DNA of 64,000 nt from Candidatus Dojkabacteria bacterium (GTDB lineage: Bacteria; Patescibacteriota; Dojkabacteria; B142; OLB20), in the NCBI GenBank assembly GCA_035444565.1, contig DAOMOX010000005.1:5045-69044 (forward strand). Direction: 5' to 3'. Every line of letters starts with the position of its first letter. Positions within the stretch are counted from its first letter, which is position 1. Below, one piece after another: positions 7,128 through 55,774 of this stretch. Both the position numbers and the translations under genes were made by a program. A model generated the notes under the pieces. The model did not search any database and was not told the origin of the DNA. It saw only the letters and a program-made list of their open reading frames with translations.

Positions 7128-7212
7128 GATTTGTTTTAAATAAATAAAATAATATATAAAATATTAATACATTAAGCTGATAAATTAAATTGTTATCACT
7201 TACTGTAAATAA

Positions 7213-7782: not shown

Positions 7783-7850
7783 AATTTATTTATTAAAGAT
7801 AACAAATTTTAAACTAATTTAAATTAAATAGCAAAACAATTACAGCAACA

Positions 7851-8588: not shown

Positions 8589-8629
8589 ATTATTAATTTT
8601 TCAATATAATTACTAAATAACAGACTTTA

Positions 8630-38472: not shown

Positions 38473-39840
38473 TTAGTCTGGAACGGTTATCTGTTCGACA
38501 TCTTTTGTGCTATTTTTTGGAAGCCAGCCTGTTTGGCCATTCGATAATTCAATCCTGTACCATTCTGCTGTTTCTTGGATCATTTTAAATTGTTCCCCTT
38601 CTTCGGCTAAGTAAATAACATTTGCACTCAAGCTGTTCGTCTCGTACACACGATATTTTGAATCCTGAGTGGTTAAACCGACATTTAGTTCGTCAAAAGT
38701 GGTTTGTGACTCATCGGTTTTCTCTGTTTCAGCTCCTTGCACAGAAGATGATGGCTCAACAGATGGTGTATTTGTTGCCTCTATTTGATCACTCTCTGAA
38801 TTTTGAGTAGGTGGGACAAGTTCCATCCAGCATTTTCTCTCCATAACACCAATCACATCTTGTATGAAGACTAAGTACATCAAAATCATAAAGAATAAGA
38901 AAGCTAGAAGATTGATTAATTTTTTATTCTTTTTCATTTTCTTGTTATTTTTCATTTCCTTGAATGTATAGTAAGCAGTCAATGCCAGGCCTATTAATGA
39001 TACCCCGACAAATATTGGTAATCTATTATTACTGATTACCTCTGGAGCTCCTGAACAAACTTCTTCGAAAACCTTCTCAGGAAGGACATTAAATACCACT
39101 CTATTTTCATAGAGTGATTCACCACCTACGAAAACCTTTATATTTCCATAATATTCTCCAGCAACAAGACCATGGTTTTTAATTATTGCTTTGACATCGG
39201 AGAATACATACGCTGGTGCTTGTTCAATTATATCCGTCTCTAACACAGCAATTTCTTTTTCGAGTAGATTTTGAACCGTAACTTCAACTTTCGATGGAGC
39301 AAGGTTTGTATTTCCGTTATTTTGTATCTTCAAATCAACAGTCATTTCCTCTTTCTCGTAAGTATCTGGGATACTTGCAGCTCTAATTTCTAGGTCAATT
39401 AAACTATCTTCCGTAGTGGCTAATTTAATATCAACCCTCGCACCTTTAACTATAGAAACACCTTTTACTTTTTCTTTTGGTGTAGCTAAAATTCTAAACA
39501 ACCCCGTATAATTTTTGGTTGCAGCGTCGGCTGGAATATTAACAATTACTTTTATTGGCACCCTTGTTTCCCCTACAGGTAATGTTACGTTCATACTCGG
39601 TTCAAATGTCACCCATCCATTCAATTCACCTAAGTCAGGTTCTATTATCGCTACAAGCTCTTCATCTGGATCAGACCTGGAGATAATCATATCTTGAACG
39701 TATTGTGTACCTTTCTTAAGTGAGCTATTTGTAACACCAGCAGGAGAAATTCCAAAGCCAGCATGTACAGTCTCAGGCAAGAACAAGAGTAAACTGAAAC
39801 TAAATAAGATTGTAATTAATAATTTTTTCATTGTTACCAT
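38473..39840 (-). CDS. Membrane protein with an extracytoplasmic N-domain, a central TM and a C-terminal bacterial SH3-like domain
   Basis: Signal peptide 'LLFLPETVHA'. TMs 'LPIFVGVSLIGLALTAYYTF' and 'LLAFLFFMILMYLVFI'. C-terminal 'AEWYRIELSNGQTGWLPKN' is SH3b-like. It overlaps the upstream gene by 7 nt. Confidence 0.5.
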   Translation of the reverse strand: MVTMKKLLITILFSFSLLLFLPETVHAGFGISPAGVTNSSLKKGTQYVQDMIISRSDPDEELVAIIEPDLGELNGWVTFEPSMNVTLPVGETRVPIKVIVNIPADAATKNYTGLFRILATPKEKVKGVSIVKGARVDIKLATTEDSLIDLEIRAASIPDTYEKEEMTVDLKIQNNGNTNLAPSKVEVTVQNLLEKEIAVLETDIIEQAPAYVFSDVKAIIKNHGLVAGEYYGNIKVFVGGESLYENRVVFNVLPEKVFEEVCSGAPEVISNNRLPIFVGVSLIGLALTAYYTFKEMKNNKKMKKNKKLINLLAFLFFMILMYLVFIQDVIGVMERKCWMELVPPTQNSESDQIEATNTPSVEPSSSVQGAETEKTDESQTTFDELNVGLTTQDSKYRVYETNSLSANVIYLAEEGEQFKMIQETAEWYRIELSNGQTGWLPKNSTKDVEQITVPD

Positions 39841-41591
39841 TGAACTAATTCTCCAAGTACTGATAATACGGTATTTGTTCCATTATATACACCTGGAGGA
39901 ATACCAGTAGGAATTTCTAGACCCCACCAGATGTTTTCTATTTCAGGTGAAGATGAAGATGTGGTTTTTAAAATATTAATTTCGTATTCTGTTGCTGTAG
40001 TACTTAATACAGACCCACTAGCATAAGCAGTACTGGCTGCAAGTGCGTGTTTTTGATATCCTACACCTATTACTCCACTTCCACCATCTGTCATATCAGT
40101 TCCAGACAAATCCGTATCAATACCTGTATTTCCAGTGTTTGTAACTGCTGTAATTTTATCCAATGGATCATTTTTCTGGCCTACGTCCAGTGAGCCGTAG
40201 TTTATACTGCTGGTTACATCTAAGCCTGAAACTGTGGCCACCTCTACTCCTGCACCAACTTCTACTGCATGTGTTGCTGCATCATCATCGATTGCGTTCA
40301 CTGTGTTTAACCAATTTTGTGCTGGATACTGTGAATTCGCATCTGTAGGATCAGCATGATATTGGACAACCACCGTACATGTATAGTCTGCAGTTTCATC
40401 GGTACTTCCAGAACATGTGGCACCTACAACTGTACAAGAGACTTGTGCATAGCAATAATTGTCATTGTCCTCTGCATTAGTATCGCAACCTGAGTAAGCA
40501 ATTGCACTTCTATATAAACTTGTTTCAACTGTTGTAATATCTTGACAGCTATTTTTATCTTGAACGGTTGCTGTGACGGGAACATTCAATGTATCACCTT
40601 CAGGAACTGAAATATTTGCTGCTCCATTAAGCGTTACAGAACTAACCACAGGTGCGAGATTGTTTATAATATAAGCACCTGTTCGATAATTCGATACTGA
40701 AGCAAAACTGTGACTATCAAATACATAAGCATAGTAGTTAATTGTGGTATCGGGTGCTACTGCGGCAATACTAATCTGACAGCTAGGATTTGACGCGGTA
40801 TTCGTCGATGCACAAATTTGTGTACCAGCACAGCCCGATGCGGTCGCACCAGTCGTATCTGCACAAACTACCAACTTAACAGTATCCTGAACCGTATCAC
40901 TATCTCCATCTGAGGCTGTCGCTGTGAAGGTCATAGTTCCTCCTGGATTTGCTCCCGAGTCTGCTCCACCTCCACCGTTATCTGAAACAGCTGAGAATGA
41001 AGGGTCATGGTTGACTTTGAATGGGGAACCTGTAGCACCAGTACCATCATCACCTGGGGTAGAACAACTTGCTGATGATGAGTTATTGTCGCAAACGAAT
41101 GCATACCAGTCATTGCTTTCCACATCAGTTCCTTGAGTTGTATAGGTACATGAAGCTTGAACACCTGAATCAGTTGCAGTAGAGACACACCAAGTGCTAC
41201 TTGCAGCACAAGTTGGTGCAGCGCCTCCAACTCCTGCAGTAATTGCATCGGTTTTACAAATCGCAAGATAATAATCTTCTGCATTGGAGTCTGTCGCTGT
41301 AGCTTGGAATACTACATTCGAGCCTTCGTTTGTAGGGGTTGTACCATCGCTGGCAGTACTCTCAGCAGGACCTGCTGTAAAACTCGGTGCTGAGTTTCCT
41401 ACTGTCACAGTAGTTGTGACAGTTTCGGCATGTACCAATATCTTAAAACTTAAAAGCAAAACAACTAAAAAGACAAAAAGTCCAAGGGTAATATACACAA
41501 AATTTCTTATCTTCTCTGTCGTCATCGAAATAAATATGTGTGAACTAAAATGTACCATAATTAACAATGTACTACAATCATCTAAATACAA
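39834..41591 (-). CDS. Surface protein, paralog A of the giant-protein C-terminal domain family (the likely start is the internal Met 'MTTEKIRNF')
   Basis: Signal-anchor 'ITLGLFVFLVVLLLSF'. It shares 'AEDYYLAICKTDA', 'CDTNAEDNDNYCYAQVSCT' and 'GIPPGVYNGTNTVLSVLGEL' with 41595..43292 and with the C-terminus of the 3266-aa protein. Confidence 0.6.
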   Translation of the reverse strand: MYLDDCSTLLIMVHFSSHIFISMTTEKIRNFVYITLGLFVFLVVLLLSFKILVHAETVTTTVTVGNSAPSFTAGPAESTASDGTTPTNEGSNVVFQATATDSNAEDYYLAICKTDAITAGVGGAAPTCAASSTWCVSTATDSGVQASCTYTTQGTDVESNDWYAFVCDNNSSSASCSTPGDDGTGATGSPFKVNHDPSFSAVSDNGGGGADSGANPGGTMTFTATASDGDSDTVQDTVKLVVCADTTGATASGCAGTQICASTNTASNPSCQISIAAVAPDTTINYYAYVFDSHSFASVSNYRTGAYIINNLAPVVSSVTLNGAANISVPEGDTLNVPVTATVQDKNSCQDITTVETSLYRSAIAYSGCDTNAEDNDNYCYAQVSCTVVGATCSGSTDETADYTCTVVVQYHADPTDANSQYPAQNWLNTVNAIDDDAATHAVEVGAGVEVATVSGLDVTSSINYGSLDVGQKNDPLDKITAVTNTGNTGIDTDLSGTDMTDGGSGVIGVGYQKHALAASTAYASGSVLSTTATEYEINILKTTSSSSPEIENIWWGLEIPTGIPPGVYNGTNTVLSVLGELVQW

Positions 41592-41594
41592 TAA

Positions 41595-43292
41595 TTACCA
41601 TTCTGCCAACTCACCTTTAACTGCAGTCACAGTGTTGGTTCCCGTATATACTCCAGGCGGAATTCCCAAAGGAATTTCCAGACCCCACCAAGTATTTTTT
41701 GTTTCTGGTGCTACTGCGGATGTAGTCTTGGGAACGTTTAATTCATACTCTGTCAACACAGTAGTTAGAGTAGTTCCGCTAGAGTAAGCAGTTCCAGAAT
41801 TTAGGGAGTGTTTTTGATAATTTACTCCTATAACTCCACTGCCCCCATCTGTCATATCTGTACCTGCTAGTTCTTGATCCAACCCCACATTTCCAGTGGC
41901 AGTTACAACAGTGATTTTGTCTAATGGGTCATTCTTATCTCCAATGTTTAAAGAGCCGTAGTTAATTACACTCGTGACATCGAGAGCATTCGTTGTCAGT
42001 ACCTCAACACCTGCCGGGACTTCCAGGTCATGACTTTGTGAATTATCATCGATAACTTTTACTGTGCCCAACCAGTTCTCTAGTGGGAATAAACTATCTG
42101 TAAAAGTGGAGTCAGCGTGATATTGCATATCTACATTACAATCATAATCAGCAAATTCGTCAGTACTCCCGGTACAAGTTCCTCCCGTTAACGTACACGT
42201 CACTTGGGCATAGCAGTAATTATCATTGTCTTCTGCATCGGTATCACAGGCTGGATACCCTATCCCAGAACGATAAATATTCGTTTCCACTGTGGTGACA
42301 TCCTGGCAACTGTTCAGGTCGCTAATATTTGCATTGACTGGAACACTTGTAGTAATCCCTTCCGCTAATGAAATATTTAGCGAATTGTTTAAAAACAGAG
42401 AAACAACTGTAGGTGCAACGTTGTTAATTGTGTATGTTCCAGTTTCGTAGTTTGACAATGACGCGAAGCCATGGCTATCAAACACATATGCATAATAATT
42501 ATAATTTCCATCAGGAGCTACATTTGGAATATTAATCTGACAGGTCGGATTTGATGAGACATAAGCCGAATTACAAAGTTCAACTCCGGAGCAACCAGAG
42601 GCTGTTGCACCAGTGGTGTCCGCACAAACAACTAATTTGACTGTATCTTGAAGTGTATCGACATCGTCATCATTGGATGTACCTGTGAATGTGATTGTTC
42701 CTCCTGGATTTGAGCCAGTGTCTGCCCCACCCCCACCGTCATCTGTAATCGCTGTGAAAGTTGGGTCATGGTTAACCTTAAAAGGGGAACCAGTACTCCC
42801 TGAACCTGTCGCTCCCGGTGAAGAACAACTTGCATACGTTGCGTTGTTGTCACAAACGAAGGCATACCACTCATTACTCTCTGCATCGCTATCTTGTGTG
42901 GTGTATGTACATGATGCCTGGACACCAGAATCTGTCACCGGAGACACACACCAGCTTCCACCACTACAAGTAGGCGGAGCACCTCCTACTCCAGGAACAA
43001 CTGCATCAGTTTTACAAATTATAAGATAGTAATCCTCCGCGCTAGCATCAGTTGCAGTCGTTTGGAACGTTAAATCAGCTCCGACATTTATAGGATTATT
43101 TCCATCACTAGGAGTACTAGTCTCAGGTCCAGAAGTTATAACTGGAGAGGCATTCCCAGCAGTCACAATCGTGATTACGGTCTCTGCATAGACTGCAACC
43201 TTAAACACAGCCAAAAACAAACCAATGATGATTAGATTTGTTAGTAGATTTGATTTTTTAATTTTTAAAATTCTCAATTTATTAATTTCCAC
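41595..43292 (-). CDS. Surface protein, paralog B of the giant-protein C-terminal domain family
   Basis: Signal-anchor 'LIIIGLFLAVFKVAVYA'. It aligns along its full length with 39834..41591 ('VTAGNASPVITSGPETSTPSDG', 'CDTDAEDNDNYCYAQVTCT', 'GIPPGVYTGTNTVTAVKGEL'). Confidence 0.6.
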   Translation of the reverse strand: MEINKLRILKIKKSNLLTNLIIIGLFLAVFKVAVYAETVITIVTAGNASPVITSGPETSTPSDGNNPINVGADLTFQTTATDASAEDYYLIICKTDAVVPGVGGAPPTCSGGSWCVSPVTDSGVQASCTYTTQDSDAESNEWYAFVCDNNATYASCSSPGATGSGSTGSPFKVNHDPTFTAITDDGGGGADTGSNPGGTITFTGTSNDDDVDTLQDTVKLVVCADTTGATASGCSGVELCNSAYVSSNPTCQINIPNVAPDGNYNYYAYVFDSHGFASLSNYETGTYTINNVAPTVVSLFLNNSLNISLAEGITTSVPVNANISDLNSCQDVTTVETNIYRSGIGYPACDTDAEDNDNYCYAQVTCTLTGGTCTGSTDEFADYDCNVDMQYHADSTFTDSLFPLENWLGTVKVIDDNSQSHDLEVPAGVEVLTTNALDVTSVINYGSLNIGDKNDPLDKITVVTATGNVGLDQELAGTDMTDGGSGVIGVNYQKHSLNSGTAYSSGTTLTTVLTEYELNVPKTTSAVAPETKNTWWGLEIPLGIPPGVYTGTNTVTAVKGELAEW

Positions 43293-43345
43293 ATTTCTAA
43301 ATTTCTACATTTAATCTCCTTTCTCAATATCTTAATTTCTACATT
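43289..43345. repeat. Three tandem copies of a roughly 14-bp AT-rich motif (aatttc[c/t]acattt) in the gap between the giant gene and paralog B
   Basis: 'taatttccacattt', 'taaatttctacattta' and 'ttaatttctacattta' read directly from the sequence. Confidence 0.5.
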
Positions 43346-43348
43346 TAT

Positions 43349-46300
43349 TTACGGGATGTTATCATTCTTCGCTAATACAGTATTCACACCATCATACTCC
43401 CCCAAATTCTGTCCCAGATCCAGACCGAGCCGCCAATATAAGTTTTTCGTTTGAGTTGATGGTGAAGCTGTCGGTTTTGCGAGATTAAACTGAATCCTAA
43501 AAGCAGAAGAAGTTAAATCAGTTCCACTTCCGTACGTAAAAGTACTCATAGAGTATTCCTGTTGTCCTACAGCGATTGAATCTCCTGCACATGTGGGGTA
43601 ATCAGTACACATACTGTCTCCCAGTAATTCTAAGTCAAGGATTATATTCCCTTCATTCGTCACCAAAGTAGTTTTCTCCGAACTACTATCTCCCGCCAAC
43701 ATCAAACCATAGTCAATCGAGGTAACAATATCAAGTGCAGAGAGACTTTCTACATCAGGAGCATTTGTAGCACTAAATTCGCTTCCAGTATCACTGTGAC
43801 TATCAGTTGCTTCCATCCACCCTCTCCAATATTCTGACGGCATGGTGCTATTAGCGTCTGTCGCATCAGCATGGAAATACATTGCTGCAGTACAAGTCGC
43901 AGTACAAGTATTTCCAGAACAACCAGTTAAATCACATACTGCATCTGCATAACAGTTGTTATTATCTGGTGTACAGGCTTCCGCCCCCGCAACTCCTGAT
44001 CTATATAATTTGCCAGTCACTCCTGCAATTTCTGCATTTCCATCCAAGTCGGTTATTGTTGCAGTCCAACTAACATTATGTGTCGAACCTGCAGTAAGGC
44101 TAATATTTGAAGCTCCATTTACCACGACATTCGATATTGTAGGTGCGTTATTTGTCGTACCTGATAAAACCGTTTCCCAACCAATATTATAAGGTGATAA
44201 ATCTCCGATTGAGTATATTGCTCCTACTTTTCCATTTCCTGTGTTGTTTGCATTGTAATTCGTAAAGATTTCCGTCGCATCCGTAACAAGTGTAGTACTA
44301 GTACCCCACGACCAACTCGGACCTGCGGAATAAGTAGATTTTTTAGTAAAGATATCATCGCTCGTTGAGCCAATGTATCCGAGATAAACATCATTTGTTG
44401 CAGTATCTTTGGACAATCCTAAATAGGTGTTATCTGTGTTTGCATCGAGTGAAGCATTAGTAAAATCCCAATCTCCATCATATCGATCATAATAAATATT
44501 TCCTGACGAATTTACATACGCTAGGTGAACATAATCAATAGTGCTGATAGTTTGGCCGACAGTAGAGATATTTTTATGTAGACCTGTCGGGAGACCTGTC
44601 ACGATAGAATCCTGAACTCCGGGGACGGAAGCGGCTCCGAGTAATAGGCGGTTATAGAAGACATCTGTCCCATCTGAGTAGAGATAGTCGATCTCGTTTT
44701 GAGCGTCAGGATTTGTGGATTCAACCAGTATTTCTATCTTTCCAATATAATGATTCTCAACGTTTGCTTCATTCCAAATGCGTGTACTAATAGATTGCAC
44801 CTCGTTCCATGTCCATCCGCCACTTGGGGTAGTCAAAGTGGTGTAACTTGTCCAAGAAGGTGAATTTACTGATAGATAAAGGTCGTTATAACCGCTAGAT
44901 GTATTAACTCTAATGTATGTATCACTAGGAGAAACAGAATAGCCATATGCACGTGCCTTTACCGAAACAATAGTACTAGTAGTACTTGGTGCGTTTGTAC
45001 CATCAGCACGTAAATAGTTTGTTGTTGAACTACCAAGTGCTGTAGCATAGGCGTATGTGGAATTGTCCCCATCAAATGCATTTGCATCATCTGTCCACAC
45101 ACTATCGGGGTCTTGACAGCTCGATCCTGCAGTACAATTATCAGAGTTGTCGATATAATACGTATTCGTCTGAACTGGTGCCACACCGGTTGAATCGTAA
45201 TTATTTACATAACTCCATTTCGTTTTCACGTCTTGTAAAACTCCATGTGATTCGAGTACCGTCTCACCATTCCAACTCGTACCATTATATATATCATATA
45301 CCACGTCATCTTGATCATCCTTGTAAATTACATAAATATCTGAGCCGTATATGGCAATTGAAGGTTCGTACCCAACATCAGTTTTCGAGGTAATATTTGA
45401 CCAGTTACTAGTCCAAGTAGCCCCTTCATGCTTTGCTAACGTAACATAGTTTGTTGAACTCTCTACATAGGCTATCCAAGTATCTCCCGTCTCAGGGGAA
45501 ACCGCAATCGAAGGAATTCTCTGTCCATCAGTTATATTTACACTTGAATCAACTTGGTAATTAGTAAAGCTGGTCGCATTTGTTTGATTTCCAACAACTG
45601 CATTTAATGTACCATTCGCTCTTAAAAACACTATTTCAGGAATGTTAGAATCATTTATAGTAATATCTACATCACCTGTGGGTTGCGGTGTTCCAGATGC
45701 AATCTGAACACTTGTTTGCCAAATATTATTTGTTTTATTTTTATATTTAACAGAATAGGCACCACTAAAAGTACCCTGCTCAACCCATGCAATATGCACT
45801 TCCCCATTTTGGTCTATTGTCAATGCAAGTTCTTGTAACAAGAGATTGTTATTACCCGACAATTGAATTGTAGTTCCGAAAGTATCGGTATCGATAGAAT
45901 ATGTTGTACTTTCTATAAGATTTTGGACTGCGTTGTCTGGATATATGACTTGAATATTATCGTCACTATCAATCGCAGCAGCGATAGGTCCGCCTGAATC
46001 ACATTGTTCATTATCAGTGAGAGTCCAATTAGTTCCGTCTATACTTTTCCACATCTCGCAGTTTCCACCATCATTTAGAAAATTATACAACACTCCGCTA
46101 CTAGATCTAATGATCTGTCGTCCTGCCCCAGGCATAGTTCCAAAATCACTCACATCATCTACATTCGTCGGACTCCTCCTCAAATAAAGCGAATCGTAGT
46201 AAACATCCGTCCCATCAGAATATATGTAATCTATCGTATTGGGGCCGTAGTTATTCCATTCAAAAGCTGACTTTACTTTTACATTCTGGAAAGTGCCTTC

Positions 46301-49300
46301 ATGCAACACGGTTTCGCCTGCCCAATCTGTGCCATCATATACATCATATGCGATATCATCTTGGTCATTTTCATAGAAAACATACACATCCCCATTACCT
46401 GCAATTACTAAGGATGGTTCGTAACCTGCGTTTGTATTTGATGTAATAGTTGTCCAAGTAGACCAACTATCGGCATCAGCATGTTTCGCAAGTGCAATGT
46501 AATTATTAATATCAACATACGCTGTCCATGTATCACCAGTTATTGTATTAACTAACGAAGATGTTCCTCTCTGATTCATAGTATCATTCACATCAGTATC
46601 AACATCTTGCAATGTCCACTGACCTGCACTGTCGGGATTATTATCACTACCCAAAGCTATTGTAAGATCGTTGTCTAATCCATTTATAAAGGAAATCTCA
46701 GGGATGTCTTCGTCATTTATCGTAATACTACTCGAATGACCAGCTCCTGAAATCGTCTCTATCATGACAGAGTTGGTTAACCAAGCTGTGCTTACTCGAT
46801 TATTATAATATACTTCAGATGATAAAAATTCCACTAGGAAGGCGATATGAGGCTTATTACTACTATCTATTGTGATATCTAGATAACTAATATTCAATAG
46901 AGTGTCAGAGGAACCAACTTGTTCAGGAGTATTGAACAAATCGACACCTGTCAAATAAGTAACATACCATAGTTGATCACTAAAAGAATCATCAACAATA
47001 TATGTAGCATGTATAGTATCGTTTGAATCAATTGCAATACTTACTGGTCTATCTTGCTTACAAGTTTCACTGTCCCACCCTACCCAGACTATACCATCTG
47101 TACTTTTCCACATTTCACATCTTCCGCTATCATTCACGAAAGAATAAAGTACTCCCGATTTTGTACGTACCAATTGCCTTCCTGTATTACGGAGAGCTCC
47201 AAAATCACTCGCATCGTCGATATTGACTGAATCCGGTTGGAGTTGATAGAGTTTTGCGACTTCTTCCCCAGTTATTGCTCTATCGTAAACACGAACTTCA
47301 TCTATATATCCATTCCATGGTTCACCCGCGTCTGATTCAGCTCCTATCGTAAAATTCACTGAGTTTATTAAACTATTTACATCTGCTATTGTTCCTGTTG
47401 TCGAAGATTTTGAATCAACACCATTTATATAGATTGTAGAGTTTGTTGCGCTATCGTCATCAAAAACTACTGTAACTAGATTCCATCCACTAGTTGTCAT
47501 AGTAGTTGTTGTTTCAATTAAGAATTCATCTGAACCATCAGAAACCATAAATCTAACATCATCTAAATCTCCACTTCCGTCATTTCCATCGACCCATAAT
47601 AAATACCCCACCTCTGCAGTACTCTCACTATTTCTTTTTGCGATTATCTGATCATCACCCGTAAATGTTGTTCTGTTTACCCATGCTGAAAGAGTAAAGT
47701 CAGTTGAGTCTCCAAAATTAAGTACATTACCCATTGATACATAATCTCCTGTGCCATCAAAAGTTCCGCTCTTTCCAAATCCCGAGGATATTGTAGTTGC
47801 ATCTCCTATTCTTGTACCATCATAATTGTTCAATGTTTGATCAACTACCTCTCCTGAAGTACCATTCCAAGACACTTCATTCATTTTCCAATAACCTACG
47901 AGACCTTCTTCTAGAGAATCGAAATATTCCGACTCACCACCTCCACCTATTGTCGGGAGACAAGACGCACCTGTTCCGTCCTCCCACATCGTATCTGAGT
48001 CGTCCCACCTACACCCCAATAATCCAGTATCAACTACAAATGTCGCATACATATCTTCACTAGATAGCGCAGTCAATGTTCCGTAAACATTTAAGGACGT
48101 TTGGGCGTTAGAGAGCTGATATGGAGTAGTAGTCCAAGTCCAGGTTGATGGATCTGTTGAAGCTGCTTCTGCAGAGACGACGGTTTTGTAGACATAGTCA
48201 CTTCCGTCATTATATGTTGCACCCACCCAGATATGATTTGCAGAATCAAATGATATATAAGGTCTTGAATATGTGCCAGTTTCATCCATAGCGATGGATA
48301 CGTCAGTATCCCAAGTAACATCCGTTCCACTCAAAGTACCCTGGCGGAGCTTAATACTCCCGCCATCAGCTACGGCAACTACTATATACTCAACTGTACT
48401 TATTGACCTCCACCACACTGAAAAGTCATTTGTGTCATATGGAAGTCGACCACTTGCAGTCGTTGCTGGATTTGTCCAAGTTGAACCCTCATCACTAGAA
48501 TATTTCACCTCTATCTCATCTCCATCATGATTGAAACTCCAGTATCTGGAATTTTGATCATCATAGATTACCTTTCTCTGGAAAGATGAGCCTGTTGTGT
48601 CTTGGTTTGTGGAAGTTCCAATACAACCGTTGGGGGATATTGTCCAGTTTGCACTGTTATTGCCTGAGTTGACTGAGTTGCCTGCAGTTACGGATTTTGT
48701 TGTTAAATTAATATCTTGTAAATCAACATGCGAGACCGATGCACTTGCTGATACATCTACAGCTAAAGTCGCTTGAACTCCATTTGCAGAAGTCCTAAAA
48801 CGCATCATATTGGAACAATCCGTTCCAGTCAGAGTGAGAGAACCATTAGCAACAATAGATTTTGTACCTGCAGTCCCCAACTTTACTTCTCTATCACCAG
48901 TAGCGATTTCGAGAGTGTGGAAAGAAACTGCACCATTCAAACTTTGAGATGTGTCTACTGCACTATCGAGGATTACCTTGCCATCGTTGTGTGTGAAGGT
49001 TCCATTATTAGTGAAATCTCCTGCTACACTTAGAGGTGCCGCTTGGTTTGAGGACGCTGAATATGTACCATAAGTGTTAACAAGTATATCTCCTTCAACT
49101 GTTACTTCAGCATCGTTGGTGTTTATGTCAAAAACAAGTGTTGATGGTGCTGTAGATCCAATAGTTAGATTATTCGAAACATTTAGAGTGCCAGAATTAA
49201 GAGTATAAGTCACATTTGTTAATCCAAGACTAGTACCTACCTCTAAATTATAATAATTTAGTGCAGGTATTGAAATATCATCGTATACATTGTATTTTAC

Positions 49301-52300
49301 TGTCGATGTTGAGGGAGTAAATGTACCATTAATGATAAATGGGGTACTTGTTCCCTGGAGCAATATCAGATTCCCCCCAGCATTAAATGTTCCTGCATTA
49401 ATTGTAAAAATATCTGTGATAGTTAAATTCCCACTCGAAGTGAATGTAGTCCCTGTTTGGTTTAGGGTGAGGTTATTATATGTTTCGGCTTGGATTTCCG
49501 TAGCAGATCCCCCTGCATACTCGATAGTTGAATTTGTACCCTCATTTAAATTACCCGATATAATAAATGGTCGAGAAGAGCCTGTCCCAGAACCTGTTAT
49601 TTTTAAATTATAACCGGACGATTGAAGGTTTAACGCACCAGTTTCGCCAATATTTATCCTAGTTAGAGTTATAGAACTCCCTAGTTGAACTGTTTTATTA
49701 GCTTCCAATATTCCTAAATCCTGCTTAGTACTATTATTGTCGGTTATAACAATACTATTCGTGCCACCCAGAATTGTCTCTTGATTATTCTTTATCCAAG
49801 TAGAATTATTATTCAGGGTAATGTTCCCCCTTATTGTTGAAAATCCTCCGGAAGATATCCAATCTATACTAACAGGATTAGTTCCATCTCCGATTGATAT
49901 ATCGTTCATAATTAATTGGTTGCCAGAACTATCCATTATATATGTAGGGTTTCCTACTGCTGAAGGTTTTATCTCGAGATTATGGTATGTAAGTTCTGCA
50001 ACGGAAACATTTGAGTTAGAAGTATATTTAAAAGTCGAGGTATCCTCATTCAGCGTTCCCCCTGTTATGACAAGTGGGGAACCACCTCCTGTAAGATTAA
50101 TAGTATTACCATCCGCTATTAATATCCCTACTATCCGCAGTGCTTTAGTTGTAATATTCCCAGAGCTTGTTGAGTCCGGTCTATATGTATTTCCACTTTT
50201 TATATATATTTCAGCTGAGCTTTTGCTAGTATCATTAAGAGTCAAATCGTTTGAAGCATCAACATCGTAAAATATATCTTCGTCTGCAGAGACACTGTTA
50301 TCGTACTGACTTAGGTTAGCATTTGTTATTGTTCTATTGTCAGAATTTCCTATAGAGAGTCTTTGTTCTATCAGCTCTACTCCAGCGACATTCCCACTTC
50401 CATCATATGTGGTCACAGCAACCGCTTCGTCAGCCTCTCCAGCTCCATCAATAAATACAGTTATCACATCACCATTATTTGGGCTTGTTAATCCTGAAAT
50501 TGTCCAAGTTCCCGCAACAGTGTTTTGAACTTGTGCTTGTATAGAACCATTAATAGCTACCTTTATCGTCCCTGTATCTGTACAATTTGTTGTTTGGTCA
50601 TCTTGTTTACATGTTCCCGAAATATCTATCGCTGGGCTCGCGACATTTACCGTTGGATGTGATGAAATATTTGTCAAGGTCCCCCCAGCATCAAATCTAG
50701 TCCTTGTAGTGAATTCATCAATACCACTAGTGCTAGGCACATCTGCACCACTTGTTCCACCTCCGGCACCGTAAGTCACAGTAACCGTATCCGTTGATGC
50801 AAGATCTAAAAATCTTGCACGTATATCCACATCAGGGCCATTTGCCACAAACGTGGGACTTCCAGGTCCTACCATCACCTCATCAAGCCAAAATGTATTA
50901 CTGTCACAACCGGTAGTATCACATATCAGTCCAAAAGCCGTGATTGCAGTACGAGTACCTGTCATATCAAAAACGAAATATGTCCAAGTATTTGCAGATA
51001 CGGTACCTGTATCGAATATCGCTACTGGAGAACCAAATATTGCATTATTGTCGTAGCCGAAGTCAATTCCGGCAGCGCTAGTCAGTGCTTTAGTTGATCT
51101 CAACCAGAAAGATATCTGAGTATAGCTACTCCAATTTTGTGCGGACGCATCAAATGAGAAAGTATCCGTATCGTCAGGTAGTGCTGAGCTTGAGTTATTA
51201 CACTGTATTGCACCAGCACCTTCCTTTTTTGTAGTTGTATCCACAAAAGGACTAGCGGTTGTGTTGCACATATCAGAATCATCCTCTGTTAATGTCCAAA
51301 CACCCTGGGAAGTACTGTCTCCCGATACGAGTACATTCCCAATAGTCGTATTCCCAGATCCTGAAACAGTAGTGTATCCTGCAGTTCCTGCACTACCTTG
51401 TGGTGTCGACCAACCCCTACTTGTGGGAACTTTTATTGCCAACTCACCAGAATTAAGAACTTCTGATGGATCGTAAGTGAAAGTAAATGTCTGATCTGTT
51501 GAACCCATCAAAACACCTGTTGGAACAACCACATTTGTTCCGCTTCCGTCTGCATCACTTGCTATTTGCCACATTCTGACCTCTTGATAATCACCTATTG
51601 ACAGGGGACCTGTCAGGTAGAGAAATGGACTTATATCTGGGGCATCAAAAAAGTAAGAGTATGTAGTGTTTTCTCCTTTTTTGAGATCCACATCCCAAGT
51701 TATTGTTTGCCATGTTTCTTCGCTTGTTGTTTCAAATCCTTTTATTAAAAACCCTTTTGGCACTCTTTCAGTGATTTTACCAATGAAATCCTGATTCGCA
51801 ATCACTGTGATTTCCATAGGATACGCTACAAAAGGATATATTCTACTTGGCCCTTTCCTCTCGATTGAGTATGGGACTTCTGCCCGAACTTCATAAAAAT
51901 CTTCAATCTGATAACCATTATCTTTGTTTACCAGTGTCATTTTGTGTTTTCCAACTCCCTCAGCTTTGTGTGATGCTAGATAATCTGGGACATTAGTTAC
52001 ATTGTCTCTTTCACAAAAACCACTTTGTTTCACTTCGGGATTTGATTCTTTTCCTGACGGACTAGTAATTTTCAATTCTAAATCTGCGTCACAAATTGTG
52101 TGTCCATCGTGCTTCAGAGCTCCCATATTTAATGTGATTTCTTCACCAGGAATAAATGTCGCTTTATTCGTGTTTACGGAAAGAACTCCATAGGTAAAAT
52201 CTTTCTCCTGCTGGTAATACACTCCATCTTTGTATACTTCAAGTAGTGCCTCGTAAGCTCCGGGAGGGATTTTGTTTCGCGCAATCCTGACCGAGAAGGA

Positions 52301-53149
52301 TTTTTCACCTTCTCGGTCTACAACGAACTGTGGATTGAGCTTTTTGCCATCGTAATCCGTGAGTACCAATTGAGGTTGATTCTCATCCGAAGCGAAGGCT
52401 GGATGGATAATGTATTTCAAAATTTTTGTTTTTGTAGATAACTCGTAATCGTATTCAAAAACCAAGTCTGTATCAGCAGTAGCATTGATATTTACGGCTT
52501 TTTCATCTCCTGGAACTTTTTGGGTGATTTTGATTCTGTCCAGTTGGTCTTCGACAATAAACGCTCCAAATAAGAAAAATACAAGGATTAGTAACTTGTT
52601 GAAATTTGGAGAATGTATTGTTTTATCAATTAATTGATAACCTGTTTTTACGAATTCCGATAACAAAGAGTAAACCTTTTTGATACTTAGGTTTATTTTG
52701 TTTAACTTCGGAAGGATAGTATTTAGTGATTTTAAACTATTAAGACTTAATCCAAGATTTAGTCTTTCCTTGATTAAATTCAAGTTATTAAGACCGGATT
52801 TAAACTTTATACTTCTTTTAAATAGAAATTCCATAACTTCTAAATCTCTCAATTTCTTAATTTTTACATTTTCCTTAGACCTGGCTTTAAATTGAATTTT
52901 AAATTTCCTGAATCTGCGCTTTATATTGATAATTTCACCAATATGGTCTTCCTCGAACTTTACTCGGAAAGTCTTGTAGCGACCAACCAAGTTTTTACTG
53001 AATAGATTCGTAGTTTTGAAAAGAAACGTTGTATAAATTGGGAGGTTTTTTGTGAGGAATTTCTTGCCAACAAGAAAAAAGGTTTGGGCCATTGAAAGCA
53101 ACCTACGACAGTATATACGAATGTTTCGCCTAATTAAACGAATGTGCAA
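43349..53149 (-). CDS. Giant (about 3266 aa) membrane-anchored surface protein with LamG-like, BNR/sialidase-like and beta-helix-like repeat regions. The true start is probably downstream of 53149, for example Met-106 at 52834
   Basis: TM 'LLILVFFLFGAFIV' near residue 186. LamG-like 'GLVGYWKMNEVSWNGTSGEVVDQTLNNYDGT...DFTLSAWV'. BNR-like 'YSSDEGSTWTNP', 'WKSTDGIVW' and 'WKSIDGTNWTL'. Long NxT/G-rich stretches. The C-terminal roughly 270 aa are shared with the two downstream paralogs. The first roughly 100 codons are K-rich and look like translated AT-rich leader. Confidence 0.8.
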   Translation of the reverse strand: MHIRLIRRNIRIYCRRLLSMAQTFFLVGKKFLTKNLPIYTTFLFKTTNLFSKNLVGRYKTFRVKFEEDHIGEIINIKRRFRKFKIQFKARSKENVKIKKLRDLEVMEFLFKRSIKFKSGLNNLNLIKERLNLGLSLNSLKSLNTILPKLNKINLSIKKVYSLLSEFVKTGYQLIDKTIHSPNFNKLLILVFFLFGAFIVEDQLDRIKITQKVPGDEKAVNINATADTDLVFEYDYELSTKTKILKYIIHPAFASDENQPQLVLTDYDGKKLNPQFVVDREGEKSFSVRIARNKIPPGAYEALLEVYKDGVYYQQEKDFTYGVLSVNTNKATFIPGEEITLNMGALKHDGHTICDADLELKITSPSGKESNPEVKQSGFCERDNVTNVPDYLASHKAEGVGKHKMTLVNKDNGYQIEDFYEVRAEVPYSIERKGPSRIYPFVAYPMEITVIANQDFIGKITERVPKGFLIKGFETTSEETWQTITWDVDLKKGENTTYSYFFDAPDISPFLYLTGPLSIGDYQEVRMWQIASDADGSGTNVVVPTGVLMGSTDQTFTFTYDPSEVLNSGELAIKVPTSRGWSTPQGSAGTAGYTTVSGSGNTTIGNVLVSGDSTSQGVWTLTEDDSDMCNTTASPFVDTTTKKEGAGAIQCNNSSSALPDDTDTFSFDASAQNWSSYTQISFWLRSTKALTSAAGIDFGYDNNAIFGSPVAIFDTGTVSANTWTYFVFDMTGTRTAITAFGLICDTTGCDSNTFWLDEVMVGPGSPTFVANGPDVDIRARFLDLASTDTVTVTYGAGGGTSGADVPSTSGIDEFTTRTRFDAGGTLTNISSHPTVNVASPAIDISGTCKQDDQTTNCTDTGTIKVAINGSIQAQVQNTVAGTWTISGLTSPNNGDVITVFIDGAGEADEAVAVTTYDGSGNVAGVELIEQRLSIGNSDNRTITNANLSQYDNSVSADEDIFYDVDASNDLTLNDTSKSSAEIYIKSGNTYRPDSTSSGNITTKALRIVGILIADGNTINLTGGGSPLVITGGTLNEDTSTFKYTSNSNVSVAELTYHNLEIKPSAVGNPTYIMDSSGNQLIMNDISIGDGTNPVSIDWISSGGFSTIRGNITLNNNSTWIKNNQETILGGTNSIVITDNNSTKQDLGILEANKTVQLGSSITLTRINIGETGALNLQSSGYNLKITGSGTGSSRPFIISGNLNEGTNSTIEYAGGSATEIQAETYNNLTLNQTGTTFTSSGNLTITDIFTINAGTFNAGGNLILLQGTSTPFIINGTFTPSTSTVKYNVYDDISIPALNYYNLEVGTSLGLTNVTYTLNSGTLNVSNNLTIGSTAPSTLVFDINTNDAEVTVEGDILVNTYGTYSASSNQAAPLSVAGDFTNNGTFTHNDGKVILDSAVDTSQSLNGAVSFHTLEIATGDREVKLGTAGTKSIVANGSLTLTGTDCSNMMRFRTSANGVQATLAVDVSASASVSHVDLQDINLTTKSVTAGNSVNSGNNSANWTISPNGCIGTSTNQDTTGSSFQRKVIYDDQNSRYWSFNHDGDEIEVKYSSDEGSTWTNPATTASGRLPYDTNDFSVWWRSISTVEYIVVAVADGGSIKLRQGTLSGTDVTWDTDVSIAMDETGTYSRPYISFDSANHIWVGATYNDGSDYVYKTVVSAEAASTDPSTWTWTTTPYQLSNAQTSLNVYGTLTALSSEDMYATFVVDTGLLGCRWDDSDTMWEDGTGASCLPTIGGGGESEYFDSLEEGLVGYWKMNEVSWNGTSGEVVDQTLNNYDGTRIGDATTISSGFGKSGTFDGTGDYVSMGNVLNFGDSTDFTLSAWVNRTTFTGDDQIIAKRNSESTAEVGYLLWVDGNDGSGDLDDVRFMVSDGSDEFLIETTTTMTTSGWNLVTVVFDDDSATNSTIYINGVDSKSSTTGTIADVNSLINSVNFTIGAESDAGEPWNGYIDEVRVYDRAITGEEVAKLYQLQPDSVNIDDASDFGALRNTGRQLVRTKSGVLYSFVNDSGRCEMWKSTDGIVWVGWDSETCKQDRPVSIAIDSNDTIHATYIVDDSFSDQLWYVTYLTGVDLFNTPEQVGSSDTLLNISYLDITIDSSNKPHIAFLVEFLSSEVYYNNRVSTAWLTNSVMIETISGAGHSSSITINDEDIPEISFINGLDNDLTIALGSDNNPDSAGQWTLQDVDTDVNDTMNQRGTSSLVNTITGDTWTAYVDINNYIALAKHADADSWSTWTTITSNTNAGYEPSLVIAGNGDVYVFYENDQDDIAYDVYDGTDWAGETVLHEGTFQNVKVKSAFEWNNYGPNTIDYIYSDGTDVYYDSLYLRRSPTNVDDVSDFGTMPGAGRQIIRSSSGVLYNFLNDGGNCEMWKSIDGTNWTLTDNEQCDSGGPIAAAIDSDDNIQVIYPDNAVQNLIESTTYSIDTDTFGTTIQLSGNNNLLLQELALTIDQNGEVHIAWVEQGTFSGAYSVKYKNKTNNIWQTSVQIASGTPQPTGDVDITINDSNIPEIVFLRANGTLNAVVGNQTNATSFTNYQVDSSVNITDGQRIPSIAVSPETGDTWIAYVESSTNYVTLAKHEGATWTSNWSNITSKTDVGYEPSIAIYGSDIYVIYKDDQDDVVYDIYNGTSWNGETVLESHGVLQDVKTKWSYVNNYDSTGVAPVQTNTYYIDNSDNCTAGSSCQDPDSVWTDDANAFDGDNSTYAYATALGSSTTNYLRADGTNAPSTTSTIVSVKARAYGYSVSPSDTYIRVNTSSGYNDLYLSVNSPSWTSYTTLTTPSGGWTWNEVQSISTRIWNEANVENHYIGKIEILVESTNPDAQNEIDYLYSDGTDVFYNRLLLGAASVPGVQDSIVTGLPTGLHKNISTVGQTISTIDYVHLAYVNSSGNIYYDRYDGDWDFTNASLDANTDNTYLGLSKDTATNDVYLGYIGSTSDDIFTKKSTYSAGPSWSWGTSTTLVTDATEIFTNYNANNTGNGKVGAIYSIGDLSPYNIGWETVLSGTTNNAPTISNVVVNGASNISLTAGSTHNVSWTATITDLDGNAEIAGVTGKLYRSGVAGAEACTPDNNNCYADAVCDLTGCSGNTCTATCTAAMYFHADATDANSTMPSEYWRGWMEATDSHSDTGSEFSATNAPDVESLSALDIVTSIDYGLMLAGDSSSEKTTLVTNEGNIILDLELLGDSMCTDYPTCAGDSIAVGQQEYSMSTFTYGSGTDLTSSAFRIQFNLAKPTASPSTQTKNLYWRLGLDLGQNLGEYDGVNTVLAKNDNIP

Positions 53150-53216
53150 TTTTATAAAATGAAAATCAACCTCAATATCAGTCTAGAGAAAATTGAGGGA
53201 TATGTCTACCTCCTTT

Positions 53217-53510
53217 GTCACTCCGCGGCTTGACCGCGGAGTCCCGTTTTTCCCATAAGTGCGCCACAGGGAGGGACCACGGGATTCCGTTTTTCCCATA
53301 AGTGCGATATACCGGGCATACGAGATTCCGTGCTTAAAGCACGGAATGACCTCAGGGGTTTCGTTGCCCCGCTGTCACTCCGCGGCTTGCCTGCCACGAG
53401 GAATATCCCACCCGGAAGTCATCCCGTGGCTTGACCACGGGATCCCGTTTTTCCAATTAATCGTTTGAGCAGATAGTTCAGGACTCCGTGGTCAAGCCAC
53501 GGAGTGACGA
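53217..53510. repeat. Cluster of GC-rich palindromic repeats upstream of the GIY-YIG gene. It contains 'gtcactccgcggcttgaccgcggagtc', the hairpin 'gattccgtgcttaaagcacggaatgacct' and the 'ccgtggcttgaccacgg' variants
   Basis: Several inverted-repeat units with 8-10 bp stems, read directly. The same units recur at 53857..54028 and partly at 31826..31876. Confidence 0.7.
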
Positions 53511-53553
53511 CGAAAATTCACAATTATTCCAGAACATTCAATTACAATTCACT

Positions 53554-53844
53554 ATGAAAACCTACTTCGTTTACATAACCACTAACAGAAAACGTGGCGT
53601 TCTCTACATTGGTGTAACTAACGACTTAGTTCGTAGAATCTATGAACACAAACACAAGATAAAATGTAAGTTTTCCGCTAGATATAATGTTAACAAGTTA
53701 GTCTATTACGAGATTCACTTCAGAGCGATGAGCGCTATACATAGAGAGAAAAGATTAAAAGAATGGAAGCGAGACTGGAAAATCGAACTTATTGAGAGGT
53801 CGAATCCATTGTGGGAGGACTTGTATGAGTCTATTTCGTGCTGA
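53554..53844 (+). CDS. GIY-YIG nuclease family protein (small YhbQ-like)
   Basis: 'MKTYFVYITTNRKRGVLYIGVTNDLVRRIYEHK' is a canonical GIY-(10-11)-YIG N-terminus. The upstream in-frame extension to 53488 is encoded by the repeat and is probably not translated. Confidence 0.7.
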   Translation: MKTYFVYITTNRKRGVLYIGVTNDLVRRIYEHKHKIKCKFSARYNVNKLVYYEIHFRAMSAIHREKRLKEWKRDWKIELIERSNPLWEDLYESISC

Positions 53845-53856
53845 ATGTATATACGG

Positions 53857-54028
53857 GATTCCGTGCTTAAAGCACGGAATGACCTCGAGGGATTCGTCAC
53901 TCCGCAGGTTGACCTGAGGAATTCCCCACACCTCTGTCACTCCGCGGTTTAACCGCGGAGTCCCGTTTTATCTATAAGTGCGATATATCGGACATACGAG
54001 ATTCCGTGCTTAAAGCACGGAATGACCT
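53857..54028. repeat. Second copy of the composite GC-rich palindromic repeat (two copies of the hairpin 'gattccgtgcttaaagcacggaatgacct' plus 'gtcactccgcggtttaaccgcggagtcccgtttt...ataagtgcgatata')
   Basis: It is a direct repeat of the 53217..53352 unit, with about 85-90 percent identity by eye, on the other side of the GIY-YIG gene. Confidence 0.7.
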
Positions 54029-54040
54029 ATGGGAGCGATT

Positions 54041-54706
54041 TCAATTCCGAATCTCCACCCCACCAAACATTGCAGTACCAGTTATAACGAGTTTACCCAC
54101 AGGGGTTCCAGTAGTTTCTGTTTTATCCTCGACTCCACCTAAAATAGCAGTGATATTACTAATTACCTCAATATTTTCGGGAACTCGAAGTTCAACCCCT
54201 CCGAAAATCACACTAATATTCATCTCAGCACCATTTTTATCGATTTTTACTTTGCTTAAATCGTATTCAACTCCTCCGAATAAACAGTTGATATTTCCAC
54301 CTTCAAAATTTTCGCTTGAGATTTTCTTTTCGCTCCCCCAGAAAACTGCGCTTGCGTCCACGTTTCTTCCGGATTCTTTAACCTTATTTCCGTTGAAAAG
54401 ATTTCCCCTAAACAAAACTAACAAGCCTGCTCCGATGATAAATAATGGCCAAATCATTGCCCACACATTCCAACTTAATAGAGTAGAAAGTAAGAAAATT
54501 GCACCTAGAACAGTAAAAATCATCCCACCAGTTCGATTTCCTTGTGTGTAGAAAGAAACTCCTAATACGATTAGGAACAATGGCCACAAATTACTAAAAA
54601 ACCAGCCAACATTTAAATATCCACCAAGTCCAGTTTGGTCGAAGAGCAATCCCACTCCCAGCAATACAATGAACGTACCAATTATTAGTCTTGTTTGATC
54701 TTTCAT
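54041..54706 (-). CDS. LiaF-like / DUF2154 'toast-rack' membrane protein
   Basis: Four N-terminal TMs, then 'GGNINCLFGGVEYDLSKVKI', 'ISVIFGGVELRVPENIEV' and 'ILGGVEDK...GTAMFGGVEIRN' repeat strands. Confidence 0.5.
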   Translation of the reverse strand: MKDQTRLIIGTFIVLLGVGLLFDQTGLGGYLNVGWFFSNLWPLFLIVLGVSFYTQGNRTGGMIFTVLGAIFLLSTLLSWNVWAMIWPLFIIGAGLLVLFRGNLFNGNKVKESGRNVDASAVFWGSEKKISSENFEGGNINCLFGGVEYDLSKVKIDKNGAEMNISVIFGGVELRVPENIEVISNITAILGGVEDKTETTGTPVGKLVITGTAMFGGVEIRN

Positions 54707-54730
54707 TTGAGTAATTTAAAAATAAAATAA

Positions 54731-55774
54731 TTAATAATATTTAATCTCGAATTTACCAACACCGACATTTACATCGAGTTCGAGTCGCACTTCTGTATCC
54801 TCATAATCATCAGAAACAACTTCACCCTCTTTTCCCAAACCAGAAAATTCCTCTCCAAAAATTCTTGCCTCACCTACCCCGACATCATACTTAACTTTGT
54901 ATTCGGTACCTCTTGGAACATAAATTGTTAAATCTCCTGTTCCTACTTCAACTTTTACAGGATTTTTTGGTATGGAATCCTCGCCAAGTTCTACTTCTAG
55001 TTTACCCGCACCAACTTCTAGGTTTAATTCTTCAAGTATTAATTTTGTAAAACTTACTTCTCCCTCACCTGCACCCAAATTCAAATCCAGCTTCCTAACC
55101 GGTTTTACATCGGGTAATTGTAATGTGTACTCTGGTCCTCTACTTTTGAAACCCCAAATTTCGAAATTATCCTTTTGTGAGAAATCTAACTCCAAAGTAC
55201 GATCATCAATTTCCGAAGAGTAGTCAGGTTCACCCATATTTTCAAAATATTTTGAGTTGAAAACAACTTCAGATGAGTCAGAATTATCACTTAAGGAAAA
55301 TTTTCCTAAACCTACATTCAAATCCAAGTCGATCTCGTCAACTTCTTCCTCTACTAACTCAAAAGAATCTTCTGATGATTTCAAGTCTCCTGGATCTTTT
55401 AACAATACATTGTTCACCCTTTCTCTCCATGCAGGTCTGATAACATTATTCCCTCTTATGGTTAATCCAGTGGAAATAATTGCAAATATTGCTATGACTG
55501 TATAAATAACTAAAGCGATTACTCCAATAGAAATTGCACCAAATCTCGTTTTCCCTAAGATTATCTGAATCCCTGCAATAATTATGAAAACAGGCCAAAA
55601 CCTAAGTAACAATAACCAGACAGACCACGAAAGTGCTCCTGTAGTATTTAATAAGAAAATTGTTCCAATGATGATTAAGAAAACTGCACCAGAGTATTTA
55701 TCTGCATCGCCTTTGAACTTAACCTCTTTTTCTTTGTGGGATTTCACTTTGACTTCGTTCACTTCGGTTGTCAT
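54731..55774 (-). CDS. Membrane protein with a C-terminal DUF4097-like (toast-rack) beta-repeat domain
   Basis: N-terminal TMs. C-terminal 'LEVGAGKLEVELGE', 'VKVEVGTGDLTIYVP' and 'DVNVGVGKFEIKYY' repeated G-x-G beta-strand motifs. Confidence 0.45.
   Translation of the reverse strand: MTTEVNEVKVKSHKEKEVKFKGDADKYSGAVFLIIIGTIFLLNTTGALSWSVWLLLLRFWPVFIIIAGIQIILGKTRFGAISIGVIALVIYTVIAIFAIISTGLTIRGNNVIRPAWRERVNNVLLKDPGDLKSSEDSFELVEEEVDEIDLDLNVGLGKFSLSDNSDSSEVVFNSKYFENMGEPDYSSEIDDRTLELDFSQKDNFEIWGFKSRGPEYTLQLPDVKPVRKLDLNLGAGEGEVSFTKLILEELNLEVGAGKLEVELGEDSIPKNPVKVEVGTGDLTIYVPRGTEYKVKYDVGVGEARIFGEEFSGLGKEGEVVSDDYEDTEVRLELDVNVGVGKFEIKYY

Follow-up and report, generated by a model that had tools for sequence, protein, structure and literature searches.

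The described systems closest to the one considered here are the Pam pili of the Candidate Phyla Radiation (CPR, or Patescibacteria), the WxL/WxLIP (Csc) clusters of Firmicutes, and the chaperone–usher pili. CPR bacteria account for a sizeable part of bacterial diversity and live in attachment to other microbes, and little is known of how they display their many giant surface proteins. In the present work, we have analyzed an operon of a Candidatus Dojkabacteria bacterium located in a stretch of 64,000 nucleotides (nt) of contig DAOMOX010000005.1 (positions 5,045 to 69,044), the whole of which is called the window below. Three proteins of this operon, a giant one and two shorter paralogs, A and B, have in common a C-terminal domain of ~270 amino acids (aa), which we name DomX.

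The Pam pili of Candidatus Mycosynbacter amalyticus were solved in a 2026 preprint (bioRxiv 10.64898/2026.03.03.709456), where they were found experimentally to be donor-strand pili made of Sec-exported two-domain pilins of the immunoglobulin (Ig) fold with Cys pairs, the donated strand being the highly conserved linker. The parts are the pilins PamA and PamB, the predicted membrane-anchored PapD/FimC-like chaperones PamC and PamD, the anchor PamR, and the tip PamT, and the RbmA-like membrane anchor inserts its N-terminal strand (bioRxiv 10.64898/2026.03.03.709456). The pilins (PamA, PamB or PamE) are available as WP_260763287.1 and WP_260763280.1 and as PDB entries 25PZ and 25QA. According to the same preprint (bioRxiv 10.64898/2026.03.03.709456), the pam operon contains two chaperones, PamR, PamT, and three or four pilins in an ATP-synthase neighbourhood; Pam is found only in CPR, with distant homologues in Microgenomatia, and an MMseqs2 search returned 88 genomes with PamA and 344 with PamB, most of them from Saccharimonadia.

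The WxL/WxLIP clusters belong to a different host lineage, Firmicutes such as Enterococcus, Listeria, and Lactiplantibacillus. Insertion of a strand between WxLIP and WxL has been predicted for them and a WxLIP–WxL complex has been deposited (9i25), while the WxL proteins are believed to be monomers when they bind peptidoglycan. On the present analysis, the window operon is best filed as an Ig-fold surface-assembly system with a membrane-anchored chaperone-like partner, which is partly anticipated by the Pam preprint and extends well beyond it in distribution and architecture.

The operon consists of four co-directional genes on the minus strand at 38.4–53.2 kb of the window, with gaps of 56, 36, and −7 nt. 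Two classes of DomX proteins are distinguished, namely a T-class of large proteins encoded by the first gene, including the giant, which lack an N-terminal orphan strand, and an S-class of shorter proteins that bear this strand. The genes and the DomX copy of the giant are the following:

43349–53149, minus strand: giant protein, 3266 aa, T-class (large, without N-terminal orphan strand), DomX at the C-terminus
43349–44161, minus strand: DomX copy of the giant, aa ~2997–3266 including the stop codon; the profile matches aa 2997–3264 with E 3.5e-92
41595–43292, minus strand: paralog B, 565 aa, S-class, with signal peptide, orphan strand, two extra Cys-rich Ig-like domains, and DomX
39834–41558, minus strand: paralog A, S-class, 574 aa when read from the ATG at 41558, its domain layout being that of B
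38473–39840, minus strand: partner protein, 455 aa, its start overlapping the stop of paralog A by 7 nt

The DomX copy of the giant (residues ~2997–3264, window ~43352–44161) aligns with the last ~280 aa of A and B, the identity being 37% to A (E = 2e-41) and 35% to B (E = 4e-38) in composition-adjusted BLASTP over 294 columns. The Smith–Waterman scores against the two paralogs are 420 and 392, compared to 48 ± 9 and 45 ± 8 for shuffled sequences (n = 300). The corresponding z values of 42 and 45 exclude a purely compositional match of low-complexity sequence. The copies cover aa 281–565 in B (window 41595–42452) and aa 300–585 in A (window 39834–40694), the latter in the numbering of the open reading frame (ORF) at 39834–41591, which encodes 585 aa and reaches back to a TTG at 41591; the deposited form of A (HRN86766.1) has 574 aa and starts at 41558. 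Each of the three proteins carries six Cys in one common loop region. Their three-way alignment has 76 invariant columns, four of them with Cys, and in the alignment of 89 family members five of the Cys columns are filled in 85–93% of the sequences and the sixth in 62%.

The common C-terminal domain had been proposed in a first-pass annotation of this DNA, and the identities, E values, and shuffling results given above bear it out. The motifs quoted there are all located where it placed them, and the outcome that would have spoken against it, a compositional likeness devoid of a Cys pattern, is not what the alignment gives. The N-terminal ~250 aa that it assigned to both A and B are indeed shared, the two proteins being 64% identical over their full length. 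We also observe an additional Cys pair, MCTDYPxC, in the C-terminal subdomain of the giant DomX (window 43580–43620) and in 43 of the 89 relatives; A and B have GTDMTDGGSG at this place.

DomX matches no Pfam or NCBIfam model above threshold, either in the window proteins or in the 89 relatives. A word-indexed search retrieved 101 relatives with E values down to 1e-118, many of them proteins of ~300 aa that consist of a signal peptide and DomX alone. A full scan of 1.84 billion cluster representatives with a hidden Markov model (HMM) gave 3,265 matches, 1,606 of which have E ≤ 1e-30. Among the 150 matches listed, the host proteins range from 263 to 7,169 aa, and DomX lies within a few residues of the C-terminus in about nine in ten. 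Every named source is a CPR/Patescibacteria lineage; one is labelled as a "Gammaproteobacteria" metagenome-assembled genome (MAG), which is probably mis-assigned. A genome scan with one genome per species returned 42 DomX loci, from Paceibacterota, Kaiserbacteria, Saccharibacteria-labelled MAGs, WWE3, Kerfeldbacteria, Spechtbacterales, Peregrinibacteria, Gracilibacteria, and Peribacteria. DomX is therefore a large unannotated family that is restricted to CPR wherever the source is named, and its matches support the modular view, with a single C-terminal domain joined to very different N-terminal passengers. The ready detection of DomX in all CPR classes, set against the genome counts reported for PamA and PamB, is indirect evidence that we are dealing with a different and wider family. 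In practical terms, DomX provides an annotation handle for giant CPR adhesins and their partners, that is, for thousands of proteins now called "hypothetical protein".

Two architectural variants were seen in the family. Many large proteins have a domain containing "YCFRV" directly before DomX (loci L009, L012, L015, L018, L020–L022, L025, L029, L034, L038, L039, and L041), while the window giant differs in this region. In four proteins, three large ones and one of 642 aa (L016:1-5820, L018:4063-7650, L035:2119-6168, and L045:4152-6080), DomX is split by an insertion of 50–335 aa before the last two strands, such that the final hairpin is far off in sequence.

The AlphaFold2 model of the DomX of paralog A, obtained with the 89-sequence alignment, has a mean predicted local distance difference test score (pLDDT) of 96.2 and a predicted template-modelling (TM) score of 0.88, and shows two beta-sandwiches connected by a short linker. 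The N-terminal half is disulfide-rich, with the six Cys, conserved acidic motifs, and the blocks LTEN, TVTDxNGC, and ADPTD, and the C-terminal half is Ig-like with the conserved TVTNTGN, YWGIxIP, and GxYTGxNTFTA. The linker, NTLxALxVTxSIxYG, is among the most conserved blocks of the domain. Foldseek comparison with the PDB yields generic tandem Ig-like beta-sandwiches with TM scores of at most 0.38, the top ones being the two-domain pilus tip adhesins CsuE (0.38) and FimH (0.35), with RbmA, integrin legs, and, weakly, the basal pilin EbpB among the other matches. Profile searches of the PDB sequences with DomX and with the partner gave chance-level matches only, and a profile–profile comparison of DomX with the partner revealed no relationship beyond a common F–G hairpin motif.

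ORFs were called in all loci and scanned with the DomX profile and with a profile of the gene that follows DomX, which encodes the partner. A large DomX protein comes first, one or two shorter ones follow, and the partner closes the series, all on one strand. This order is seen in 34 of the 42 genome loci, in each of three more loci retrieved by exact look-up, and likewise in the window. The gaps are −13 to 195 nt, and the partner gene stands directly after the last DomX gene. The ORF at 38473–39840 is thus the fourth component of the system, which the first-pass annotation overlooked.

This synteny bears on one alternative, namely that DomX is a generic pair of Ig-like stalk domains with no special function, spread by local duplication and domain shuffling. 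The fold is indeed a generic beta-sandwich with weak PDB matches only, and the N-terminal halves of A and B hold more copies of the same kind of Ig domain. A generic spacer would, however, not be expected to have a terminal position fixed in about nine in ten of the listed members, motifs strongly conserved across distant CPR classes, and, in 34 of the 42 loci, strict synteny with a single partner family. We accordingly regard this explanation as very improbable.

The window partner has a signal peptide, a mature N-terminus GFGISP, and two Ig-like beta-sandwiches (aa ~29–263), followed by a two-helix membrane hairpin (aa ~267–326), a disordered linker, and a bacterial SH3 domain at aa ~396–441 (Pfam SH3_3, E 4.3e-7). 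Common to the partner family are the invariant mature N-terminus A↓GFG[IV]SP (the arrow marking the start of the mature protein), the two Ig-like domains, and a membrane helix, while partners of the Dojkabacteria type have a second helix and the SH3 domain in addition. The Ig part of the AlphaFold model has a pLDDT of ~90. Foldseek matches it with probability 1.0 to the WxLIP of E. faecium bound to a long WxL protein (9i25_C of 9i25, E 7.2e-10) and, with the same probability, to the pilus chaperones FimC and SafB (E ~4e-9, TM 0.45 on the target). The free E. faecium WxLIP (9i1y) is matched with E 5e-9, and other matches are RbmA and ASH-type Ig domains. A search with the profile of the 34 partner sequences returned only close relatives, and the PapD families (PapD_N and PapD_C) are not among the Pfam matches of these sequences.

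The first-pass annotation had suggested three roles for the shared domain. Anchoring or oligomerisation fits the conserved operon with its membrane-anchored partner and is retained here as a predicted role. Receptor binding is unlikely, because DomX is the conserved part of these proteins and the passengers are the variable part.

The structural resemblance to WxLIP raises the possibility that DomX is a non-polymerising docking domain of the WxL kind. Each copy would then bind one membrane partner and/or the cell wall by strand insertion, such that the passenger of the giant is displayed on the cell surface without a fibre and the small DomX protein stabilises or regulates the complex. The three-gene logic is identical to that of the WxL clusters, the minimal unit of which comprises a large protein whose adhesin-like passengers are followed by the shared domain at the C-terminus, a small one consisting of a signal peptide and the domain only, and a two-Ig protein with a C-terminal membrane helix. 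This arrangement is present in the window and in 34 of the 42 loci, and it constitutes an analogy of organisation rather than proof of homology. The partner, like WxLIP, has two Ig-like domains and a membrane helix, WxLIP is one of its top structural matches, and it carries an SH3 domain of the cell-wall type, while DomX is nearly always C-terminal.

At the level of sequence and motifs, the correspondence is not found. No WxL or WxLIP Pfam match passes the threshold in the 89 DomX and 34 partner sequences. The WxL model PF13731 is not among the families listed for the DomX sequences at E ≤ 1 (25 of the 44 matched families), and with the WxLIP models (DUF916/PF06030 and DUF3324/PF11797) two of the 34 partners show a sub-threshold WxLIP_HBD match (E 0.031). 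The WxLIP motif NQIDKxxxYFDLK is absent from the partners, which have the GFG[IV]SP N-terminus instead. WxL domains have two such motifs, placed on neighbouring strands of the same domain; DomX has a single conserved W-x-L/I (WGL in both paralogs and WRL in the giant, with YWGI as the consensus), its other invariant Trp, W120, being in the other subdomain. DomX also differs from WxL in having two subdomains and ~270 aa, and WxL chains are not among its top 50 structural matches. Finally, an orphan strand limited to the short class, described below, is more naturally explained by ordered head-to-tail assembly. On balance, we consider the docking explanation rather doubtful, although it is the main rival of the fibre proposal made below.

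In about half of the related loci (L001:9776-13522, L002:11215-12633, L004:9911-11892, L047:11820-15662, and ~20 others), the partner is followed by three more conserved genes, encoding a dockerin/Big_6 protein and two cohesin-like proteins with C-terminal membrane helices. Cohesin and dockerin genes were searched for in the window and are absent from it. Their products could form a scaffold, which would suit another alternative, in which the short DomX proteins are subunits of a CPR surface layer (S-layer) or another two-dimensional lattice, the partner is its membrane stalk, in the manner of SlaB, which holds the SlaA lattice in Sulfolobales, and the large proteins are accessory adhesins inserted into the lattice. 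The very wide occurrence of the system in CPR and the gene of a membrane-anchored Ig-domain partner, co-transcribed as judged from its position, are compatible with such a layer, and an S-layer chain of Deinococcus is a weak structural match (rank 37). However, the best structural matches of DomX are pilus proteins, the Pfam and NCBIfam scans gave no match to any S-layer family or SLH domain, and a two-Ig unit of ~270 aa whose orphan strand gives it a direction points to assembly in a line and not in a plane. The lattice explanation is hence judged improbable.

The two DomX classes differ most clearly at the mature N-terminus. The DomX gene adjacent to the partner encodes either the stand-alone form of ~300 aa or a form of 560–630 aa with extra Ig domains, as in A and B. 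In this S-class, the sequence directly after the signal-peptidase site is a conserved D/E-T-x-S-T-S-V-T-V-G-N-x-x-P. In the window, it is found at two places:

43143–43184, minus strand: mature N-terminus of paralog B, ETVITIVTAGNASP, aa 37–50, an orphan G-strand-like peptide after the predicted site VYA↓E
41385–41426, minus strand: mature N-terminus of paralog A, ETVTTTVTVGNSAP, aa 56–69 in ORF numbering, an orphan strand after the predicted cleavage VHA↓E

A strict regular expression for this strand recognizes 26 of the 36 complete partner-adjacent DomX genes, with several more recognizable by eye, and only one of the 22 complete upstream DomX genes. In multi-domain members, DomX is preceded by an Ig domain, and the pattern copies the last strand of this domain together with the junction, e.g., TGAYIINNLAP; the orphan strand can therefore be described as a strand without its domain. 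The N-terminal part of paralog A (residues 21–152) matches the section of the DomX profile that comprises the signal peptide, the strand, and the first sandwich (E 1e-5), so that A and B look like stand-alone subunits in which the first sandwich has been multiplied.

The earlier suggestion that the short paralogs may cap the giant, or compete with it, is not supported by these observations. Across CPR, a large DomX protein is as a rule paired with a shorter one, which is thus no matter of local duplication, and together with the orphan strand of the S-class and its constant adjacency to the partner this points to co-operating subunits, shaft or adaptor and tip, rather than competitors.

Taken together, the C-terminal module, the membrane partner of chaperone/WxLIP-like fold, and the orphan strand limited to the short class lead us to propose that DomX serves as the shared module for assembly and attachment in a surface fibre or display system that depends on Sec and is specific to CPR, with the giant as its distal adhesin. 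We have about even confidence in this proposal. The subunits would, after Sec export, be joined by beta-strand complementation, the strand exchanged being either the N-terminal orphan strand of the S-class subunits or the conserved inter-domain linker, as reported for the Pam pili. The giant, with its lectin, propeller-like, and beta-helix passenger, would accept a strand and be unable to donate one, and would for this reason be the adhesin of the distal end. The shaft or adaptor is predicted to consist of paralogs A and B, and the 455-aa partner to act as membrane-bound chaperone and/or basal anchor. Its GFGISP N-terminal strand may plug the last subunit, and its SH3 domain may hold the cell wall. 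The proposal has the merit of being a concrete assembly model, in which the strand exchanged, the tip, and the anchor are all specified.

A number of observations weigh against this proposal. DomX is modelled confidently as a complete monomer even when no strand is donated, and the low TM scores and high root-mean-square deviations, for DomX as well as for the partner, mean that the similarity to pilus and WxLIP proteins is at the fold level only. In the Pfam, NCBIfam, and PDB-sequence scans, the partner sequences (n = 34) match no chaperone or WxLIP family above threshold, and their alignment contains no invariant Arg/Lys of the kind of Arg8/Lys112 in PapD-type chaperones. Eight of the 42 loci have a large DomX gene without an adjacent partner. 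The operon differs in content from that of Pam, with one partner gene and no PamT-like single-domain pilin. In addition, the giant has no clear cleavage site, and its N-terminus might thus stay membrane-anchored, which does not fit with a position at the distal tip.

We have also considered a bolder version of the fibre proposal, which we put forward with considerable reserve. It holds that this is a distinct system, found across all CPR classes and far wider than the Pam pilus, in which adhesins of up to 7,000 aa would be incorporated in, or attached to, a strand-complemented fibre through their C-terminal acceptor module, with S-class proteins as strand donors, a membrane protein that chaperones and terminates the fibre, and a cohesin–dockerin scaffold added in many lineages. 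If true, it would be the main way in which ultrasmall episymbiotic bacteria present host-binding proteins, and the chaperone–usher, WxL–WxLIP, and Pam systems would be linked as versions of one Ig-chaperone principle.

The likeness to the Pam system concerns descriptive features. Both systems are confined to CPR and involve Sec signal peptides, two beta-sandwich or Ig-like domains with a conserved linker, and Cys pairs (two or three in Pam; six Cys in the N-terminal half of DomX). In both, an operon partner with a membrane helix resembles PapD/FimC or RbmA, and neither has an usher or an outer membrane. The conserved DomX linker matches the preprint's description of the donated linker, although the candidate donor strand here is N-terminal. 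The preprint does not describe a fusion of the kind seen for DomX, which forms the C-terminus of proteins reaching 7,169 aa. The surroundings differ as well, an ATP synthase being absent from the window and from the loci inspected, and cohesin/dockerin genes being present in other lineages. DomX offers a point of comparison for the newly described Pam pili and also for the WxL clusters of Gram-positive pathogens, which are poorly understood.

The chaperone–usher pili (Fim, Pap, Csu, and Saf) share with the present system the Ig-fold subunits and a two-domain Ig-like protein of chaperone type. Their tip adhesin, moreover, combines a passenger with a C-terminal pilin-type domain without donor strand, while the later subunits have an N-terminal extension. 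The present system differs from them in having neither usher nor outer membrane, in the membrane anchor of its partner, and in its subunits of two or more domains, and neither the Arg/Lys pair nor any sequence similarity is found. The sortase-assembled pili of Gram-positive bacteria, whose cells also have no outer membrane, are likewise composed of a tip adhesin, a backbone, and a basal subunit of Ig-like domains, and EbpB was noted above as a weak match. A, B, the giant, and the partner have no [LIV]Px[TSA]G motif or C-terminal sorting signal, DomX being the end of the protein, and the scan of window ORFs detected no sortase gene. For lack of LPxTG we rejected a sortase pilus, and for lack of a PF12389 signal a fibre of TasA/camelysin type.

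The passenger of the giant contains a LamG/concanavalin-like lectin domain (aa 1798–1965; Pfam Laminin_G_3, E 1.1e-27), a tandemly duplicated unit of ~330 aa (aa 1970–2301 and 2323–2651) with internal repeats of 40–43% identity, and repeated beta-helix-like segments, all of which are typical of adhesins. The sole hydrophobic segment of the protein is at aa 185–204 and has no obvious signal-peptidase site. It is preceded by ~180 Lys/Arg-rich residues in the ORF (aa 1–204, window 52540–53149), the start codon of which is a candidate only.

Exact copies of A, B, and the 455-aa protein are present in public collections, from Candidatus Dojkabacteria MAGs, under the labels "hypothetical protein" and "SH3 domain-containing protein", and a locus from another CPR MAG (L005) is 97% identical to that of the window. 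The neighbours are ordinary cellular genes, among them diacylglycerol kinase, phosphoketolase, acetate kinase, GroEL, ClpB, YidC, and ribosomal protein L25. Upstream of the giant and on the same strand, two LiaF-like/toast-rack membrane proteins of the cell-envelope stress type are encoded (window 54041–55774, minus strand). Between these and the giant (53150–54040) there are ~900 nt of non-coding DNA with dense GC-rich palindromic hairpin repeats, in families of 52–82 nt, for which Rfam gave no family above threshold. Of the two hairpin types, one has the form ACTCCGCGG-N5-CCGCGGAGT followed by CCCGTTTT, and the other is ATTCCGTGCTTAAAGCACGGAAT. The former has four matches in the 64 kb, all of them within 53150–54040, compared to a chance expectation of 0.03.

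Elsewhere in the window, five small same-strand ORFs of 156–245 aa form a run at 5922–9349 (minus strand); they have no Pfam match, with the sole exception of a sub-threshold T4SS_pilin match in the last one (8630–9349). The GC content is 0.42 across the DomX genes (window 40000–44000), compared to 0.34–0.37 in the flanks, which probably reflects proteins rich in Thr, Ser, Gly, and Ala rather than foreign DNA.

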